Assembly (NCBI GenBank): GCA_964493485.1
Contig: CAZBMQ010000006.1
Location: 12,081-71,581 of the forward strand
DNA length: 59,501 nt
Direction: 5' to 3'
Origin: an uncultured Candidatus Saccharibacteria bacterium
GTDB taxonomy: Bacteria; Patescibacteriota; Minisyncoccia; Minisyncoccales; JANBVM01
Part shown: positions 44,583-49,707 of the stretch, piece after piece
Position numbering within the stretch: position 1 is the stretch's first letter
How the letters are laid out: the number at the start of each line of letters is the position of its first letter
The notes under the pieces: generated by a model
What the model saw: the letters and a program-made list of their open reading frames with translations, nothing else
The model's database searches: none
Told to the model about the DNA's origin: nothing
Position numbers and translations under genes: made by a program

Positions 44583-44976
44583 ATAAAGGTATTAGAAAGC
44601 ACTCTTAAAGTAAATATGGTTTTTTAGAGTTGTCCCGACTATTCTTTTTATTCGAGGATTTGATCCTGGTCCAGGATGAACGCTGGCGGCGTGGATAAGG
44701 CATGCAAGTCGAACGGACCTTATGCTTTGCATAAGGTTAGTGGCGAACGGGTTAGTAACACGTGGGTAACATACCGCCGAGACAGGGACAACCCAGAGAA
44801 ATCTGGGCTAATCCCTGATGGCCTGGTAATTGATTATTCTTTTACCAGTAAAGGGTTTCGCAAGAAACCGCTCGGCGAATGGCCTGCGGCCTATCAGCTT
44901 GTTGGTAGGGTAATGGCCTACCAAGGCTATGACGGGTAGGCGGAGTGAGAGCTTGTCCGCCAACAATGGCACTGAG

Positions 44977-45008
<32 letters not shown>

Positions 45009-45525
45009 CGAGAATATTGGTCAATGGGGGAAACCCTGAACCAGCGACGCCGCGTGCAGGAAGAAGGCCTTCGGGTTGTAAACTGCTTTTCTCCGGGAGC
45101 AAGGGAGTAATCCCTGAGAGTACCGGAGGAATAAGGGGATGCAAATTCTGTGCCAGCAGCCGCGGTAAGACAGAATCCCCAAGCGTTATCCGGATTTATT
45201 GGGCGTAAAGGGTCCGTAGGCGGTCCGTCAAGTTTTCTGTTAAATCTCTAGGGCTTAACCTTAGAGCCGCAGAAAAGACTGACGGACTAGAGGGCGTTAG
45301 AGGTTGATGGAACGCTCGGTGTAGGGGTGAAATCCGTTGATATCGAGCGGAACACCGAAAGCGAAGGCAGTCAACTGGGGCGACCCTGACGCTGAGGGAC
45401 GAAAGCGTGGGGAGCAAAAAGGATTAGATACCCTTGTAGTCCACGCCCTAAACGATGGACACTGGCTATCTGTAGTGTCGACCCTACAGGTGGCGAAGCT
45501 AACGCGTTAAGTGTCCCGCCTGGGA

Positions 45526-45557
<32 letters not shown>

Positions 45558-46029
45558 AGACGGGGGCTCACACAAGCGGTGGATCATGTGGCTTAATTCG
45601 ATAACAAACGAGGAACCTTACCAGGGCTTGACAGGCTAGTGAAATCCGCCGAAAGGCGGACTACCCACAAGGACACTAGCCCAGGTGCTGCATGGTTGTC
45701 GTCAGCAGGTGTCTTGAGATGCTCCCTTAAATGGGGAAACCTGCGTAACCCTTGCCCTATGTTTCACGTGTCATAGGGGACTGCCGTAGATAATACGGAG
45801 GAAGGTGAGGATGACGTCAAATCAGCATGGCCCTTTGATGTCCTGGGCTGCACACATGATACAATGGTCAGGACAATGGGTTGCTAAGGAGAAATCCGGA
45901 GCTAATCCCATCAAACCTGATCTCAGTTCGGATTGAGGTCTGCAACCCGACCTCATGAAGCCGGAATCGCTAGTAATCGCCAATCAGCCATGTGGCGATG
46001 AATATGTCCCTGAGCCTTGTACTCACCGC

Positions 46030-46892
46030 CCTGAAATAAAGTGCCTGGTAGGTAAATCAGCTAATAGGTGACTCGTTTATTAAAAATTTGTTTAAACGAG
46101 AAATCCTATTTTATAGCCAAAAATAGCATCCTATTTTCTGTAAAGAGATAGGGGAGAGCTTGAGGCGAAAGGCAGCCCTCCAACCTTAATGGGTTGAAGA
46201 GATAAGACGACTTCTGTTGGGCGGTCAGGAGGAAGTCTCTTTATCTTTAAGCTCTATTTGAGGGATGCCTGAAAGAGTTGATTTACTGACCCAGGGAGAT
46301 CCTGATAAGGAAAGAAGCTGGTACCTGTCAGGAAGTCAGCGAGGTAATAGTACCTTATTTATCTTGACGCTATGCATGTCCAAAGATAAGATAAGGGAAG
46401 GACCTCACCTATCTATGCTTACTGAAGATTATGTTATTGGATTAACAGATGGAGAAGGAAGCTTTACAGTGTTTCAGAGAAAAATTGGAAAGTACCGTAA
46501 GATAGAGTGTCATTTTTATGTGAAGATGAGAAAAGAAGAAAAAGAATTATTAGAGAGGTTGAAAAAATTTTTTGGATGTGGTCGAGTCTCTTTTCAGAAA
46601 GATAAACGAAGAAATCATAGTGATTGTTATCGCTATGAAGTGGGGAACATAAAAGAATTGAGACAAAAAATAATTCCAGTTTTTAAAGGGAGATTGTTAA
46701 GCAAGAAGAGAAAGAAGGATTTTGAGATATTTTGTAAGATTTTGAAGCTTGTGGAAAGTAAGGCACATTTAAGCGAGGAAGGATGGGAAAGAATTAAAAA
46801 GTTGAAAGGAAAGATGCATAGATAGGGCTCCGCCCGGTACGGGAAATCCGTACGCCGGGAAGGAACGAGAAAGCTAGTTTCAAGCACTCAAT
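46030..46892 (+). mobile_element. Group II (IIC-like) intron in 16S at E. coli about 1402/1403, 863 nt; boundary could shift by 2 nt
   Basis: D1 base CCTGG/CCAGG, EBS1 loop GGGCGGT complementary to the junction ACCGCCC, J2/3 AGC, D3 GAGGT/ACCTC, 11-bp D4, CGC-triad D5, end CTCAAT. Confidence 0.85.
46415..46825 (+). CDS. Single-motif LAGLIDADG homing endonuclease (136 aa) in intron domain IV
   Basis: YVIGLTDGEGSF motif, beta-saddle F.V.MR..E..LL..L..FFGCG.V, Y.V..IKEL...IIP.F; the upstream 50 codons of the track ORF are ribozyme sequence. Confidence 0.92.
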   Translation: MLTEDYVIGLTDGEGSFTVFQRKIGKYRKIECHFYVKMRKEEKELLERLKKFFGCGRVSFQKDKRRNHSDCYRYEVGNIKELRQKIIPVFKGRLLSKKRKKDFEIFCKILKLVESKAHLSEEGWERIKKLKGKMHR

Positions 46893-47167
46893 CCGTCACG
46901 CCAAGCGAGCTGGGAATAGCTGAAGTCCCGCCGATTAAGGTGGGCCTAAGCTAGGTTCAGTGAGAGGGGCGAAGTCGTAACAAGGCACGGGTAGCGGAAG
47001 CTGTCCGTGGATCACCACATTTTATTTTTTGATTGGTCGACTAGGATTGAAATCTGGAATTCGGATTTTAATTCTAGGGGTGTTGATCGAGGAGCCTTTA
47101 AGTCTCGATCGTTGAAATAAGTCGGGACAACTCTAAGAAACCATAAAAAGACTTATATAAAATAATT

Positions 47168-47198
47168 AAAAGCCAGTTTGAATGTACAGGCTTTTTTT
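47168..47198 (+). terminator. Possible terminator after the 16S precursor
   Basis: AAAAGCC...GGCTTTT with a 7-T run; 14-nt loop. Confidence 0.5.
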
Positions 47199-47204
47199 AT
47201 TGAC

Positions 47205-47233
47205 TTGCAAAAATAAAAAAATTGACATAAAAT
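47205..47233 (+). promoter_or_regulatory. Promoter of the YbaK-MTase-tRNA unit
   Basis: TTGCAA, 17 nt, TAAAAT, ending 8 nt before ATG 47242. Confidence 0.55.
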
Positions 47234-47241
47234 TTATTTAT

Positions 47242-47748
47242 ATGCCGGTTCCAAAGAAAGTGATTAATTTTTTAGAAAAGAATAGGGCAAGATATGAAAT
47301 AGTTGAACACCGAACAGTTTACACTGCTTTTGATAAAGTGAAGACATTAAAAGTAAAACCAAATATTGTTGGAAAAACATTGGTTTTAAAAGGAGATAAA
47401 GATTTAATATTTGTGTTGATTCCAGCAAACAAGAATTTAGATAAGAATAAATTTAAAAAAATAGTTAATATTTGGAGAAAAAAACAGGGAAAGAAGAGTG
47501 TGAAAAAGATAGAATTTGTATCAGAAAGAGTAATTAAGAATAAAATAAAAGGAGTGAAATTAGGTGCTATTCCTCCTTTTGGAAGCCTTTTTGGGTATCC
47601 TACTTTTGTAAATAAATCATTGTTGAGTCAGAGAAAGATTATTCTGAATTCAGGCATTCCTGATTTTTCAGTTAGAATTACAACAGCTTCTTTTAAAAAA
47701 ATAATCCCAGATATGATATCTGCAAATTTTGTGAAGGCGAAAAAGTAA
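47242..47748 (+). CDS. YbaK/EbsC-family aminoacyl-tRNA deacylase (168 aa)
   Basis: HRTVYTA, VGKTLV (conserved Lys), GAIPPFG; start moved to ATG 47242. Confidence 0.85.
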   Translation: MPVPKKVINFLEKNRARYEIVEHRTVYTAFDKVKTLKVKPNIVGKTLVLKGDKDLIFVLIPANKNLDKNKFKKIVNIWRKKQGKKSVKKIEFVSERVIKNKIKGVKLGAIPPFGSLFGYPTFVNKSLLSQRKIILNSGIPDFSVRITTASFKKIIPDMISANFVKAKK

Positions 47749-47764
47749 TTTAAATGATTTTAAG

Positions 47765-48325
47765 ATGTGGTATCAAACTTTCTCAATATTTTATGAAAAA
47801 GCTGCAGAAAGAATGTGCCAAGAATGTAAAGAGTTTATTAAAAAGGGGAGCAGAATACTTGATTTAGGTTGTGGTTCTGGAATAGTAGGTAATACATTTC
47901 AGAATTTTTTTAAGGCAGAAGTTATGGGAGTGGATATTACAGATAGAAGAGTACTTCCTATTCCATTTAAAACTATTGATGGAAAATCTCTTCCTTTTCA
48001 GGATAATAATTTTGATGCAGTATTAATTTCTTATGTGTTACACCACAGCCAGGATCCAATGCTTCTTTTAAAAGAAGCTAAAAGAGTGACGAGGGATAAG
48101 ATTTTAGTGTACGAAGATTTGCCGGATGGGATTTTCTCAAGATTATTTTGTGCTCTTCATGGATTTTTATTTGATAAATTATTTCAGAATAAAAATAGAA
48201 CAAGCTTTAAAACAGAAGAAGAATGGAAAAAGGTATTTGCAGATTTAGACTTAAAAATGGTTTTTCAAAAAAAGGTTTCTTTTTTAAACCCAGTTAGAAA
48301 AAAATTGTTTGTATTACAGAAATAG
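47765..48325 (+). CDS. Class I SAM-dependent methyltransferase
   Basis: ILDLGCGSG, GVDI, LPFQDNNFDAV, VLHH; the last base of TAG is G1 of tRNA-Ile. Confidence 0.88.
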   Translation: MWYQTFSIFYEKAAERMCQECKEFIKKGSRILDLGCGSGIVGNTFQNFFKAEVMGVDITDRRVLPIPFKTIDGKSLPFQDNNFDAVLISYVLHHSQDPMLLLKEAKRVTRDKILVYEDLPDGIFSRLFCALHGFLFDKLFQNKNRTSFKTEEEWKKVFADLDLKMVFQKKVSFLNPVRKKLFVLQK

Positions 48326-48399
48326 GGCATGTAGTTCAATGGTAGAACACTTCTCTGATAAAGAAGAGGTCGTAGGTTCGATTCCTACCATGCCCACCA
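48325..48399 (+). tRNA. tRNA-Ile (GAT), CCA encoded
   Basis: GGGCATG/CATGCCC acceptor; CTTCT-CTGATAA-AGAAG anticodon arm; A73 then CCA. Confidence 0.95.
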
Positions 48400-48431
48400 A
48401 CATTGCTTTGCAATATAGAATTTAACACACT

Positions 48432-48505
48432 GGGCCCGTAGCTCAGTTGGCTAGAGCATCGCATTTGCAATGCGGAGGTCAGGAGTTCGAGTCTCCTCGG
48501 GTCCA
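48432..48505 (+). tRNA. tRNA-Ala (TGC)
   Basis: G3-U70 identity pair; TCGCA-TTTGCAA-TGCGG anticodon arm. Confidence 0.95.
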
Positions 48506-48657
48506 CACTTATTTTCTTTCTTTAAGTTTTCCACAAAAAGTTTTTTTGGCTCTCTTAACTATGTTATAATATAAAAATATAGTTTGTTATGGCGCATTTG
48601 ATATGCGACATAACTGTTAATTCTTAAAAGGTCGATAAATAACCTTTTACAAAAAAT

Positions 48658-49335
48658 ATGGTGAAAGACTGGTCAGTAATTACTACTGAGGCTTTACAAG
48701 AAACTTGGAGAGCATTTTTATTCTTTTTACCTAAACTGATTGGAGCAATAATAGTATTTGTTATTGGTTGGCTTATTTCTTCTGCTTTAGGCAGATTAGT
48801 GGCTGAGGCTCTGAAGCTTTTAAAGTTTAATCAGGTATTTGAAAGAAGCAATTGGAAAGAAGCTCTTGAAAAAGCAGATTTGAAGGTAAATCCTTCTGAC
48901 TTTGTTGGAGGAATTTGTAAATGGATTCTGGTAATAGTATTCTTGCTTGCTTCAGTAGACATTTTAGGGTTTGAAGAGTTTGCTGACATTTTAAGCAGAG
49001 TTATAAGTTGGCTTCCAAACCTGATAGTTGCTATAGCTATTTTCATAGTGGCTATAATTCTTACTGATATTTTAGAAAAAATCATTAAGGCTAGTGTGGA
49101 AAAGATGGGGATAGAACATGCAGGATTTCTTGGTACTTTGGTAAGATGGTCAGTTTACTTTTTTGCTCTAGTAGCTATACTTATTCAGTTAGAAGTAGCG
49201 CCGAGTATAATTAATACGTTGTTTACAGGAATAGTTGGAATGTTTAGCTTAGCTTTTGGTTTAGCTTTTGGGCTTGGGGGAAAGGATGCTGCAGCTAAGG
49301 TAATTGAAGATTTCAAGAGAAAAATTTCTTCATAA
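48658..49335 (+). CDS. MscS-associated TM-helix repeat membrane protein
   Basis: Two repeats of (F/W)LP(K/N)LI.A..(V/I)F; GLAFGLGGKD C-terminus; no cytoplasmic cage domain. Confidence 0.75.
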   Translation: MVKDWSVITTEALQETWRAFLFFLPKLIGAIIVFVIGWLISSALGRLVAEALKLLKFNQVFERSNWKEALEKADLKVNPSDFVGGICKWILVIVFLLASVDILGFEEFADILSRVISWLPNLIVAIAIFIVAIILTDILEKIIKASVEKMGIEHAGFLGTLVRWSVYFFALVAILIQLEVAPSIINTLFTGIVGMFSLAFGLAFGLGGKDAAAKVIEDFKRKISS

Positions 49336-49419
49336 ATTTTTTTCATCTGAAATTAAAACAGTAACAGAGTAACAGCTTGTATAAAATTACAAGAATGAGT
49401 TTTATTAGTTGAAGGAGAT

Positions 49420-49471
49420 AAACCCACATCACACATCATAGATATCAGTTTGAAGCGTGGTGTGGGTTTTT
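49420..49471 (+). terminator. Long hairpin with T-run just upstream of the 23S promoter
   Basis: 13-bp AAACCCACATCAC / GTGGTGTGGGTTT stem followed by TT; large loop. Confidence 0.5.
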
Positions 49472-49474
49472 AGC

Positions 49475-49502
49475 TTGACAAATTATTTTGATTTGCTAAA
49501 AT
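49475..49502 (+). promoter_or_regulatory. Promoter upstream of 23S-5S
   Basis: TTGACA, 16 nt, TGn-TAAAAT. Confidence 0.7.
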
Positions 49503-49512
49503 AAGGATATAC

Positions 49513-49569
49513 ATGAAAATGATGAGTATGATGATAAATTATTTAATAAAGAAAACAAGAAGCGGTTAG
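49513..49569 (+). CDS. Putative Met-rich leader peptide MKMMSMMINYLIKKTRSG
   Basis: 5 ATG among the first 7 codons; stop codon overlaps the antiterminator 5' arm; not in the ORF track (18 aa). Confidence 0.55.
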   Translation: MKMMSMMINYLIKKTRSG

Positions 49570-49623
49570 TGTTTGGAATTTTTATTAATTACTAGAGAGA
49601 CCGCTTCTTGGGAGCGGTTTTTT
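49556..49623 (+). promoter_or_regulatory. Mutually exclusive antiterminator/terminator hairpins
   Basis: CAAGAAGCGGT (49556-66) pairs perfectly with ACCGCTTCTTG (49600-10); alternatively AGACCGCTTC/GGAGCGGTTT plus T-run forms a terminator. Confidence 0.7.
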
Positions 49624-49707
49624 GATTAAAGAATGGGAAAGAACTCTACAACTAAATAAAGACAGTAAAAGGCATTATTCGCTAAATTTGTTTTATAGGA
49701 TTTTGGA

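Follow-up and report, generated by a model that had tools for sequence, protein, structure and literature searches.

How does an intron that sits in the decoding centre of a 16S rRNA gene, and that has no GUGYG at its splice site, define its own 5′ end, and by what chemistry would it take the first step of splicing? The stretch of DNA analysed here (59,501 nt, hereafter the window) raises this question through an 863-nt insert. [quoted passage not shown] What it observed is for the most part borne out; its reading of those observations is supported in part.

The insert interrupts the decoding-centre strand of the 16S rRNA, on our reading of the junction between positions C1402 and C1403 (E. 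coli numbering). The match to the Rfam bacterial SSU model (44648-46067) breaks at ...CUUGUACUCACCGCCC, i.e. at CACCGC/CCGUCAC, and the 16S sequence resumes 3′ of the insert, from 46893, at ...AAU/CCGUCACGCCAAG; the mature rRNA must read CACCGCCCGUCAC. CC is repeated at both junctions, giving three equivalent registers (46030-46892, 46031-46893 and 46032-46894) with the same mature rRNA. The interrupted gene is the only 16S gene in the window, and it is matched most closely by the 16S of Patescibacteria MAGs. In two hydrothermal-vent metagenome runs, DNA contigs match the intron sequence exactly; the exon-exon 'joints' present in those DNA contigs stem from other, intron-less 16S genes. Metatranscriptomes of relatives gave only short contigs of mature 16S rRNA, with no intron ends, lariat joints or circle joints among them. 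The features that delimit the insert are as follows.

46030-46892, + strand: group II intron in the register we prefer, 863 nt long (sequence, homologue junctions and DNA contigs)
46890-46892, + strand: 3′ tail AAU of the intron, with exon 2 running from CCGUCAC at 46893 (sequence and homologue junctions)
46415-46825, + strand: gene in domain 4 (D4) for a LAGLIDADG_1 homing endonuclease of 136 aa with a single motif (Pfam E = 3e-15)

Relatives of the insert were collected by way of the endonuclease. A scan of one genome per GTDB species returned 80 loci (L001-L080): in L001-L030, which are for the most part Patescibacteria MAGs, a homologous insert interrupts the 16S at this very place, and L031-L080, mostly Acidobacteriota, carry a related endonuclease in the 23S rRNA. 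A protein search led to closer relatives, whose contigs were retrieved (L081-L090) and whose endonucleases, 64-71% identical to that of the window, all begin at the same ATG as the window ORF; over the family relatives as a whole, protein identity is 45-71%. L091-L170 come from a scan of metagenomes. Introns homologous to that of the window were thereby obtained, in this 16S helix, from 30 GTDB genomes and 80 metagenome loci and, after parsing of the junctions, amount to 100 distinct introns, mostly from Patescibacteria. They occupy adjacent 16S sites, tallied as four, from 1398/1399 to 1402/1403, and fall into these groups:

Group E, A1398/C1399: 5 distinct introns
Group A, C1399/C1400: 64 distinct introns, junction CUCAC/AAUAAAAGCG ... 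AAU/CGCCCGUC
Group C, C1402/C1403: 20 distinct introns, junction CACCGCC-A ... AAU-CCGUC
Group B, which includes the window intron, C1402/C1403: 10 distinct introns, junction CACCGCCC-N ... AAU-CCGUC

The group B site thus lies 3 nt downstream of the commonest site, C1399/C1400. In a tree of the endonucleases, a large group A clade stands opposite a clade made up of group B (monophyletic), C, E and the remaining A. Loci L081-L094 have in common CGCCC plus a spacer at the 5′ junction, AAU/CCGUC at the 3′ junction, AA in domain 5 (D5) and AAA/A in D6.

Tsurumaki et al. (2024) have reported 53 group II-like insertions, 39 of them with LHEs, at position 1400 of CPR 16S genes (PMC11270868); these were identified by Rfam models, and their anatomy is not given (PMC11270868). 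Loci L001-L030 and L095-L170 are the 16IS9 family of that report. The window intron is a member of this known '1400' family of CPR 16S introns, within which it belongs to a sub-lineage of 10. It shares with 16IS9 the CPR host clade, the rRNA helix, the LAGLIDADG_1 gene and the lack of a reverse transcriptase, and it aligns to 16IS9-type loci domain by domain. It differs in that its group is inserted 3 nt downstream, at 1402/1403, has a longer spacer opening with CC, lacks the triad G.U in D5 and sets the A of D6 opposite AAA. The view of the intron as an independent bacterial case is not supported: the intron belongs to the reported position-1400 insertions (PMC11270868), and 5′ linkers are already described for the rns-1396 IIC-LHE introns (PMC13190283) and for C.te.I1 (PMC4024640).

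What kind of element is the insert? Models of the Rfam intron families find none at its curated score in the window. RF01998 (group II D1-D4) gives, at a permissive threshold, a weak match over the D2-D3 region at 46297-46403 (21 bits against a cut-off of 35, E 0.29), and RF00029 gives none. Relatives reach 38.6 bits with RF01998, over the cut-off, and 32.5 bits with RF00029, and the GAAGUCAGC...AUAGUA...GAAGG block matches RF01998. The six-domain architecture of a group II intron is present, with covarying helices and the ORF in D4: RNAalifold on the 10 sequences of the sub-lineage gives 93 pairs in D1-D3, 51 of them with compensatory changes. The domains and the junction between D2 and D3 (J2/3) are placed as follows.

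46044-46295, + strand: domain 1 (D1), with basal helix 46044-48 / 46291-95 (RNAalifold, 10 sequences)
46296-46337, + strand: domain 2 (RNAalifold)
46338-46340, + strand: J2/3, AGC (conserved GAAGUC-AGC; first base variable only in the window sub-lineage)
46341-46406, + strand: domain 3 (RNAalifold; weak RF01998 match 46297-46403)
46829-46864, + strand: D5, with triad 46831-33, AC bulge 46852-53 and AAA loop 46844-46 (covariation, D5 of relatives)
46867-46889, + strand: D6, with GAG/CUC and GCU/AGC helices, a 7-nt loop and A46886 opposite AAA 46870-72 (covariation)

These grounds identify the insert as a compact group II intron of IIC-like type that encodes a LAGLIDADG protein and that we assume to be self-splicing; the label IIC-like refers to its compact D1, CGC triad, short IBS1 and lack of EBS2. 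Two other identities were considered and rejected. Group I introns are the usual hosts of LAGLIDADG genes in rRNA, yet RF00028, used to test for their P3-P9 core, has no match in 45950-47000 even at E = 10; the same search does detect group I introns elsewhere, in L084 and L118. An intervening sequence processed by RNases would call for a terminal processing helix, of which there is none, and the group II core is conserved.

[quoted passage not shown]

46030-46038, + strand: 5′ spacer CCUGAAAUA, running from the splice site to the GUGYG-equivalent (family comparison)
46039-46043, + strand: GUGYG-equivalent AAGUG, in which G1 and U2 are replaced (aligned directly 5′ of the D1 basal helix)

The basal helix of D1, CCUGG 46044-48 / CCAGG 46291-95, is backed by compensatory changes, and measured against it the original prediction was correct in stating that GUGYG and G1 are missing and that AAGUG (46039-43) is preceded by 9 extra nt. 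In the 46029/46030 register there is accordingly no GUGYG at the splice site, and its equivalent lies 9 nt inside the intron. The relatives have AAGCG, AUGCG, CUGUG and other pentamers at this place; the first two positions vary across the family, and the conserved part is only G3-Y4-G5. A spacer of ~5-10 nt is present in every family member (100 introns inspected): it is ~5 nt long (AAUAA) in most of the 1399/1400 group and 6-8 nt in others, while in the 10 members of group B it has ~6-10 nt, varies in sequence and length, and always opens with CC. What had been called an 'extension' in the window intron is thus common to the family, in which it ranks among the longer spacers. More generally, the unusual 5′ end and branch region are shared by the whole sub-lineage, and do not amount to a new splice-site mechanism.

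Such a mechanism had been proposed in the form of a long-range pairing, in which UGAAAU of the extension (46032-37) contacts GUUUCA in the D6 loop (46877-82) and so positions the 5′ splice site. The two stretches can indeed pair, over 6 bp with one G.U. Two further introns, L081 (UGAAG/CUUCA) and L090 (UGGAG/CUUCA), also reach 6 bp, and there is one apparent switch from A-U to G-C. This complementarity does not exceed what chance provides, however: shuffling yields a 6-bp run with P = 0.12 for the spacer and P = 0.03 for D6, and the A/U-rich intron offers 12 stretches to which the spacer could pair over at least 6 bp. The longest native runs in the 10 group B introns are 6, 6, 3, 2, 4, 3, 3, 5, 6 and 4, so that seven of the ten reach only 2-5 bp; the complementary stretch shifts its position within the spacer; and in L087 the loop has changed to AAGUCCA, yet UGAA is retained. 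We compared duplex energies and longest runs with those of permuted partners and shuffles, in three groups and under two definitions of D6. Native partners were no better than permuted ones among the 10 group B introns (p = 0.49 and p = 0.2-0.85), and groups A and C gave no signal of spacer/D6 pairing. Covariation between extension and D6 among homologous CPR introns, which had been named as one check on this idea, is thus not seen in the 10 members of group B. With complementarity at chance level, no covariation, and a pairing of EBS1 with IBS1 that accounts for the site, the claim of a new splice-site mechanism is not supported, and we regard the extension/D6 contact as very improbable.

The 5′ splice site is, on the sequences compared here, better explained by the EBS1-IBS1 pairing than by a contact between the extension and D6. 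The elements concerned are these.

46025-46029, + strand: IBS1, the last 5 nt of exon 1, ACCGC, E. coli A1398-C1402 (complementary to GCGGU 46221-25)
46211-46231, + strand: EBS1 hairpin, stem CUUCUG / CAGGAG and loop UUGGGCGGU at 46217-25 (covarying stem)

The EBS1 loop of the window intron contains GGGCGGU, complementary to exon ACCGC(CC). EBS1 is GCGGU at 46221-25, the GG at 46219-20 is complementary to the CC with which exon 2 begins, and the loop as a whole can pair with ACCGCCCG in the ligated exons, over 8 bp without a break. The opening CC of the window spacer could likewise pair with G46219-20. The same arrangement recurs at the other sites: the group A loop, GGGYG-GUGAG, pairs with CUCAC/CGCCC, the group E loop is GCGG-UGAGU, and the loop of groups B and C, (GG)G-GCGGU, pairs with ACCGC/CC(G). 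In all groups the stem-adjacent part of the loop pairs with 5 nt of exon 1, and a further 2-8 nt of exon 2 are paired. Where the junctions are unambiguous, in groups A and E, exactly five stem-adjacent bases pair with exon 1 and their 5′ neighbours with exon 2. In group B the earlier GAG has become CAG and has been taken up into the covarying stem CUUCUG/CAGGAG, which makes GCGGU 46221-25 the stem-proximal pentamer. Our preference for the 46029/46030 register comes from carrying the 5-nt pairing rule over from the groups with unambiguous junctions. We infer from it that exon 1 ends with C46029 and the intron with U46892, three bases past D6 like the other groups.

In either of the other two registers, exon 1 would end at C1403 or C1404 (46030 or 46031), the intron would end in AAUC or AAUCC, and IBS1 would be ACCGCC(C). 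Such a choice would make use of the complementarity of GGGCGGU to the entire ACCGCCC, would conform to canonical introns in having the IBS1 pairing end at the splice site, and would bring the distance from A46886 to the 3′ end to the canonical 7-8 nt. We nevertheless consider it rather unlikely, given that IBS1 is exactly 5 nt beside the stem in the unambiguous groups, where the intron ends in U, 3 nt past D6, and given that in group C the single repeated C rules out the +2 register for that group. The γ-γ′ interaction is uninformative on this point, because the first base of J2/3 is A, U or G while the 3′ end of the sub-lineage is constant. As to EBS2, the 19 nt upstream of IBS1 show no complementarity above chance, in keeping with its loss. 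EBS2 is absent from IIC introns generally.

We now consider the first step of splicing, on which D6 bears most directly. The window D6 reads GAG-AAA-GCU-AGUUUCA-AGC-A-CUC-AAU. A lower helix, GAG 46867-69 / CUC 46887-89, lies beside A46886, and a second helix, GCU 46873-75 / AGC 46883-85, lies directly above it; both 3-bp helices covary in group B (GGG/CCC, ACU/AGU, GCC/GGC). The original prediction had seen the lower helix and had rightly called this D6 atypical, but its statement that the pairs flanking the branch position are missing was mistaken, as two covarying helices flank A46886. A46886 and the AAA facing it (46870-72) are invariant in all 10 members of the sub-lineage, and the combined D5/D6 model is 100% paired over 10 sequences, with compensatory changes at 4 pairs, above all slid controls. 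A46886 lies in a 3x1 internal loop rather than being a pure bulge, and is the 7th nt from the 3′ end counting itself (6 nt before the end; 7-8 in the other registers). A purely bulged A, located 7 nt from the 3′ end with 4 bp and AAU after it, occurs in 15 of the 20 group C introns, which bear spacers too; the same pure bulge is found in 13 of the 64 group A introns, spacer-bearing as well. In the large group A clade the homologous position is base-paired, as covarying U-A or C-G, from which we take the branch A to be truly gone there. The window D6 is intermediate, with an A kept at the canonical place yet not bulged. The term 'branch-less' is thus not established for this intron, whose A46886 is invariant and homologous to the canonical bulged A of its spacer-bearing sister groups.

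There are then two possible routes for the first step. In one, branching persists: the 2′-OH of A46886 would attack the phosphate at 46029/46030, and the lariat loop would include the 9-nt spacer. The invariance of A46886 between two helices with compensatory changes, its canonical distance from the 3′ end, and the sister groups that keep a pure bulged A alongside a spacer (15/20 in group C, 13/64 in the 1399/1400 group) all speak for this route. In the other, the first step is hydrolysis, which is favoured by the absence of G1, the IIC-like backbone, the lack of a reverse transcriptase, which leaves no selection for a lariat, and a branch A that is not a clean bulge but faces three unpaired A. 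Known introns point the same way. Those with a spacer that have been assayed, C.te.I1 and that of Pycnoporellus (Li 2011), give linear product only and splice by hydrolysis alone (PMC4024640); branching in vitro is a rare event for IIC introns, including those whose branch site is normal (PMC4748821). Weighing these points, we hold that the first step would most likely be hydrolysis, which the original prediction had reasonably guessed; branching through A46886 is doubtful, though far from negligible.

A further oddity concerns D5, which in the window is near-identical to the D5 of the relatives and, save for one mispairing in the triad, is that of a group II intron. The relatives' D5 reads UCGCCGUAU-GCGGG-AAA-UCCGC-AC-GUACGGUGG, with a CGC triad and G.U in the lower helix, an AC/AG bulge and an upper helix. 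In the window the triad is C46831 G46832 C46833, and G46832 faces A46860/A46861 instead of U, exactly as had been noted from the window alone; the AA is invariant in 10 of 10 sub-lineage members. Group B has GCCGGG-AA-GG in 10/10, against ...G-UG-GG in the other groups, and the other family members inspected keep the usual triad G.U. In one alignment of the strands G46832 and C46831 face A46860 and A46861, while with the strand slipped G faces AA; the G.U is lost either way. All 14 D5 pairs form in every sequence of the sub-lineage, one of them with a compensatory change. J2/3 has also changed. Its first base is A in group A (56/56 scorable) and group C (19/19 scorable), and U, A or G in group B. 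At the spot in the 3′ strand of D5 where group B has lost the triad G.U, nine relatives carry an insertion of 40-70 nt, made of two hairpins.

Do these changes signal a ribozyme in decay? A decayed intron would leave the insert retained in the rRNA, or cut by host RNases without ligation, giving fragmented rRNA. The disrupted pairing of the D5 triad, the unconstrained first base of J2/3 and the failure of the Rfam models on the window are what one would expect in that case. Set against them are deviations fixed in 10 diverged members, in a lineage with abundant compensatory changes and intact endonuclease genes. Moreover, the window has no second 16S gene, and it is the decoding centre of this single one that the insert interrupts; the intron ends form no processing stem. 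We consider decay extremely improbable, and from the fixation of these changes alongside intact endonuclease genes and abundant compensatory changes we judge the changes in D5 and J2/3 to be tolerated or adaptive. Assuming that the intron self-splices, its active site would then be a remodelled one, with no triad G.U and an unconstrained first J2/3 base.

Our explanation of the locus as a whole, which we think probable without being sure of it, is a IIC-like intron of the 1400 family with its 5′ site set by EBS1, a hydrolytic first step, ligation of the exons and homing at the DNA level. The EBS1 loop UUGGGCGGU, and not the spacer, would set the 5′ splice site: its five stem-proximal bases GCGGU would pair with exon ACCGC, and the two G that follow would find their partners in the initial CC of exon 2 or, as long as the first step is still to come, in the CC at the very start of the intron. 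In this way the loop would serve as a single contiguous guide across both exons and, combined with a spacer tolerant of ~5-10 nt, would allow relatives to slide among four neighbouring sites. Hydrolysis would follow as the first step, a lariat not being needed where there is no reverse transcriptase; exon ligation would restore CACCGCCCGUCAC, and the intron would spread via DNA homing by its endonuclease.

Several known systems resemble this one in part. The rns-1396 IIC-LHE introns of Thiotrichaceae, which Liu et al. (2026) class as IIC (PMC13190283; see also Salman et al. 2012), are bacterial 16S introns of IIC-like type. Their D4 encodes a single-motif LHE, every member bears a linker at the 5′ terminus, EBS2 is lacking, and the EBS1 loop is complementary across both exons (Table S4 of PMC13190283). 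They differ in their site, A1396/C1397, and mostly in host lineage, and are likened to the window intron by description only. Mitochondrial IIB1 introns (Li, Costa, Bassi, Lai & Michel 2011), as summarised in PMC4424553 and PMC4024640, also lie in rRNA genes and splice 1-33 nt upstream of GUGYG; they have an altered IBS1-EBS1, no EBS2 and often a LAGLIDADG gene, and one spacer intron of this kind that was tested spliced by hydrolysis. The spacer at the 5′ end, the missing G1 and the atypical D6 that the original prediction had noted match the syndrome of these mitochondrial rRNA introns (Li et al. 2011). In contrast to the window intron, they have a IIB1 backbone, are organellar and have lost the branch A, where the window keeps an unpaired A and its sister groups combine a spacer with a canonical bulged A. 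C.te.I1 of Clostridium tetani (McNeil & Zimmerly 2014) is bacterial and cannot splice without its spacer of 8 nt. EBS1-IBS1 specifies a 5′ site located 8 nt before GUGYG, EBS2 is missing, and an IIA-like pairing of the 3′ exon beside EBS1 covers as many as ~4 bp; hydrolysis is its sole mode of splicing (PMC4024640). Unlike the window intron it is of class B (IIB), lacks an ORF, resides in a protein-coding gene with alternative splicing, and has an EBS1 loop enlarged to 24 nt and no branch A (PMC4024640). Finally, canonical IIC introns (e.g. O.i.I1 of Oceanobacillus iheyensis) share the compact D1, CGC triad, short IBS1 and absence of EBS2, as well as a tendency to hydrolysis in vitro (PMC4748821); they differ in starting with GUGYG, encoding a reverse transcriptase, targeting terminator hairpins and keeping the triad G.U.

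Much of this is already known, namely the position-1400 CPR insertions with LHEs, the 5′ linkers, and the syndrome of spacer, missing EBS2 and hydrolysis. In the literature we found no description of one family spread across several adjacent sites with a guide loop that re-registers, of spacers that coexist with canonical branch sites, or of a remodelling of D5 and J2/3 like that in the sub-lineage of the window. We put forward tentatively, as what may be new, that the EBS1 loop is a contiguous two-exon guide which, with a spacer of free length, let the intron slide among four adjacent decoding-centre sites (1398/1399, 1399/1400, 1402/1403 and, in the related rns-1396 family, 1396/1397), and that the window sub-lineage is a natural ribozyme with a remodelled core, in which the triad G.U has given way to G-A and C-A mismatches and J2/3 has an unconstrained γ base.

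Group II introns serve as the model for the active site of the spliceosome, and the D5 triad, J2/3 and the branch helix are among the most constrained RNA elements known. With no triad G.U and a freed γ base in J2/3, its branch-position A lying in an A-rich internal loop and its predicted cleavage 9 nt upstream of the GUGYG-equivalent, the sub-lineage persists in an essential gene. If it is self-splicing, it provides a natural means of finding out how far the catalytic core can be dispensed with. Set beside the sister groups, which have a canonical branch A as well as a spacer, it would also allow a test of whether 5′ spacers really force hydrolysis. The introns of the family sit under the 1392/1406 'universal' primer site, and carriers are therefore missed by 16S amplicon surveys.

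Domain 5 (D5) of group II introns is usually an invariant hairpin of ∼34 nt. In 9 of the 100 distinct introns of the family, however, the 3' strand of D5 holds an insertion of 40-70 nt that consists of two covarying hairpins, and the carriers are distributed across three site groups. The insertion point lies exactly between the partners of triad C and triad G, and so coincides with the position of the AA in the window (46860-61, facing triad G46832). We found no published report of a two-hairpin insertion in the 3' strand of D5.

L110, L122, L161/L169, L123, L125, L138, L143, L146, D5 region: 16S loci with the D5 insertion
L125, final ∼110 nt of the intron: example of the insertion

The adjacent 16S sites 1398/1399, 1399/1400 and 1402/1403 are all used by this one intron family (L001-L030, L081-L170 and the window, 46025-46031), while the related rns-1396 family occupies 1396/1397. 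In the shifted site groups, the exon sequence C or CC is directly repeated at both junctions, and these short repeats look like footprints of intron sliding.

Three of the 1398/1399 introns share a further feature. In their EBS1 stem, the 3' strand reads GGUAUGGGG or GGUAUGAGG and is complementary over 9 nt (including G.U pairs) to the exon stretch UCUUGUACU, immediately upstream of IBS1.

L001, L110, L133: introns with EBS1-stem/exon complementarity

This match may represent an alternative or IBS2-like pairing, or it may have arisen by chance.

In the automatic ORF list, the endonuclease frame of the window reaches upstream to 46265, across D2-D3, giving 186 aa. Because the endonucleases of the homologues all begin at an ATG corresponding to 46415 (136 aa), the extension 46265-46414 is probably not translated. 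Related LAGLIDADG proteins, with 31-38% identity to that of the window, are encoded by 23S rRNA inserts of L031-L080, placed between window LSU positions ∼1916 and ∼2005. Their hosts are mostly Acidobacteriota, with Chloroflexota and Omnitrophota MAGs also represented.

L037, 2733-3448: example of a 23S insert

The window's 16S and 23S genes are separated by 2.7 kb (47016-49707), occupied by two tRNAs and three protein genes, which encode an aminoacyl-tRNA editing domain, a class I methyltransferase and an MscS-type channel helix. Two relatives carry, in addition to the 16S group II intron, group I introns (RF00028) farther along the rRNA operon.

L084, 2059-2484: group I intron RF00028, 85.6 bits
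L118, 1775-1983: group I intron RF00028, 48.2 bits
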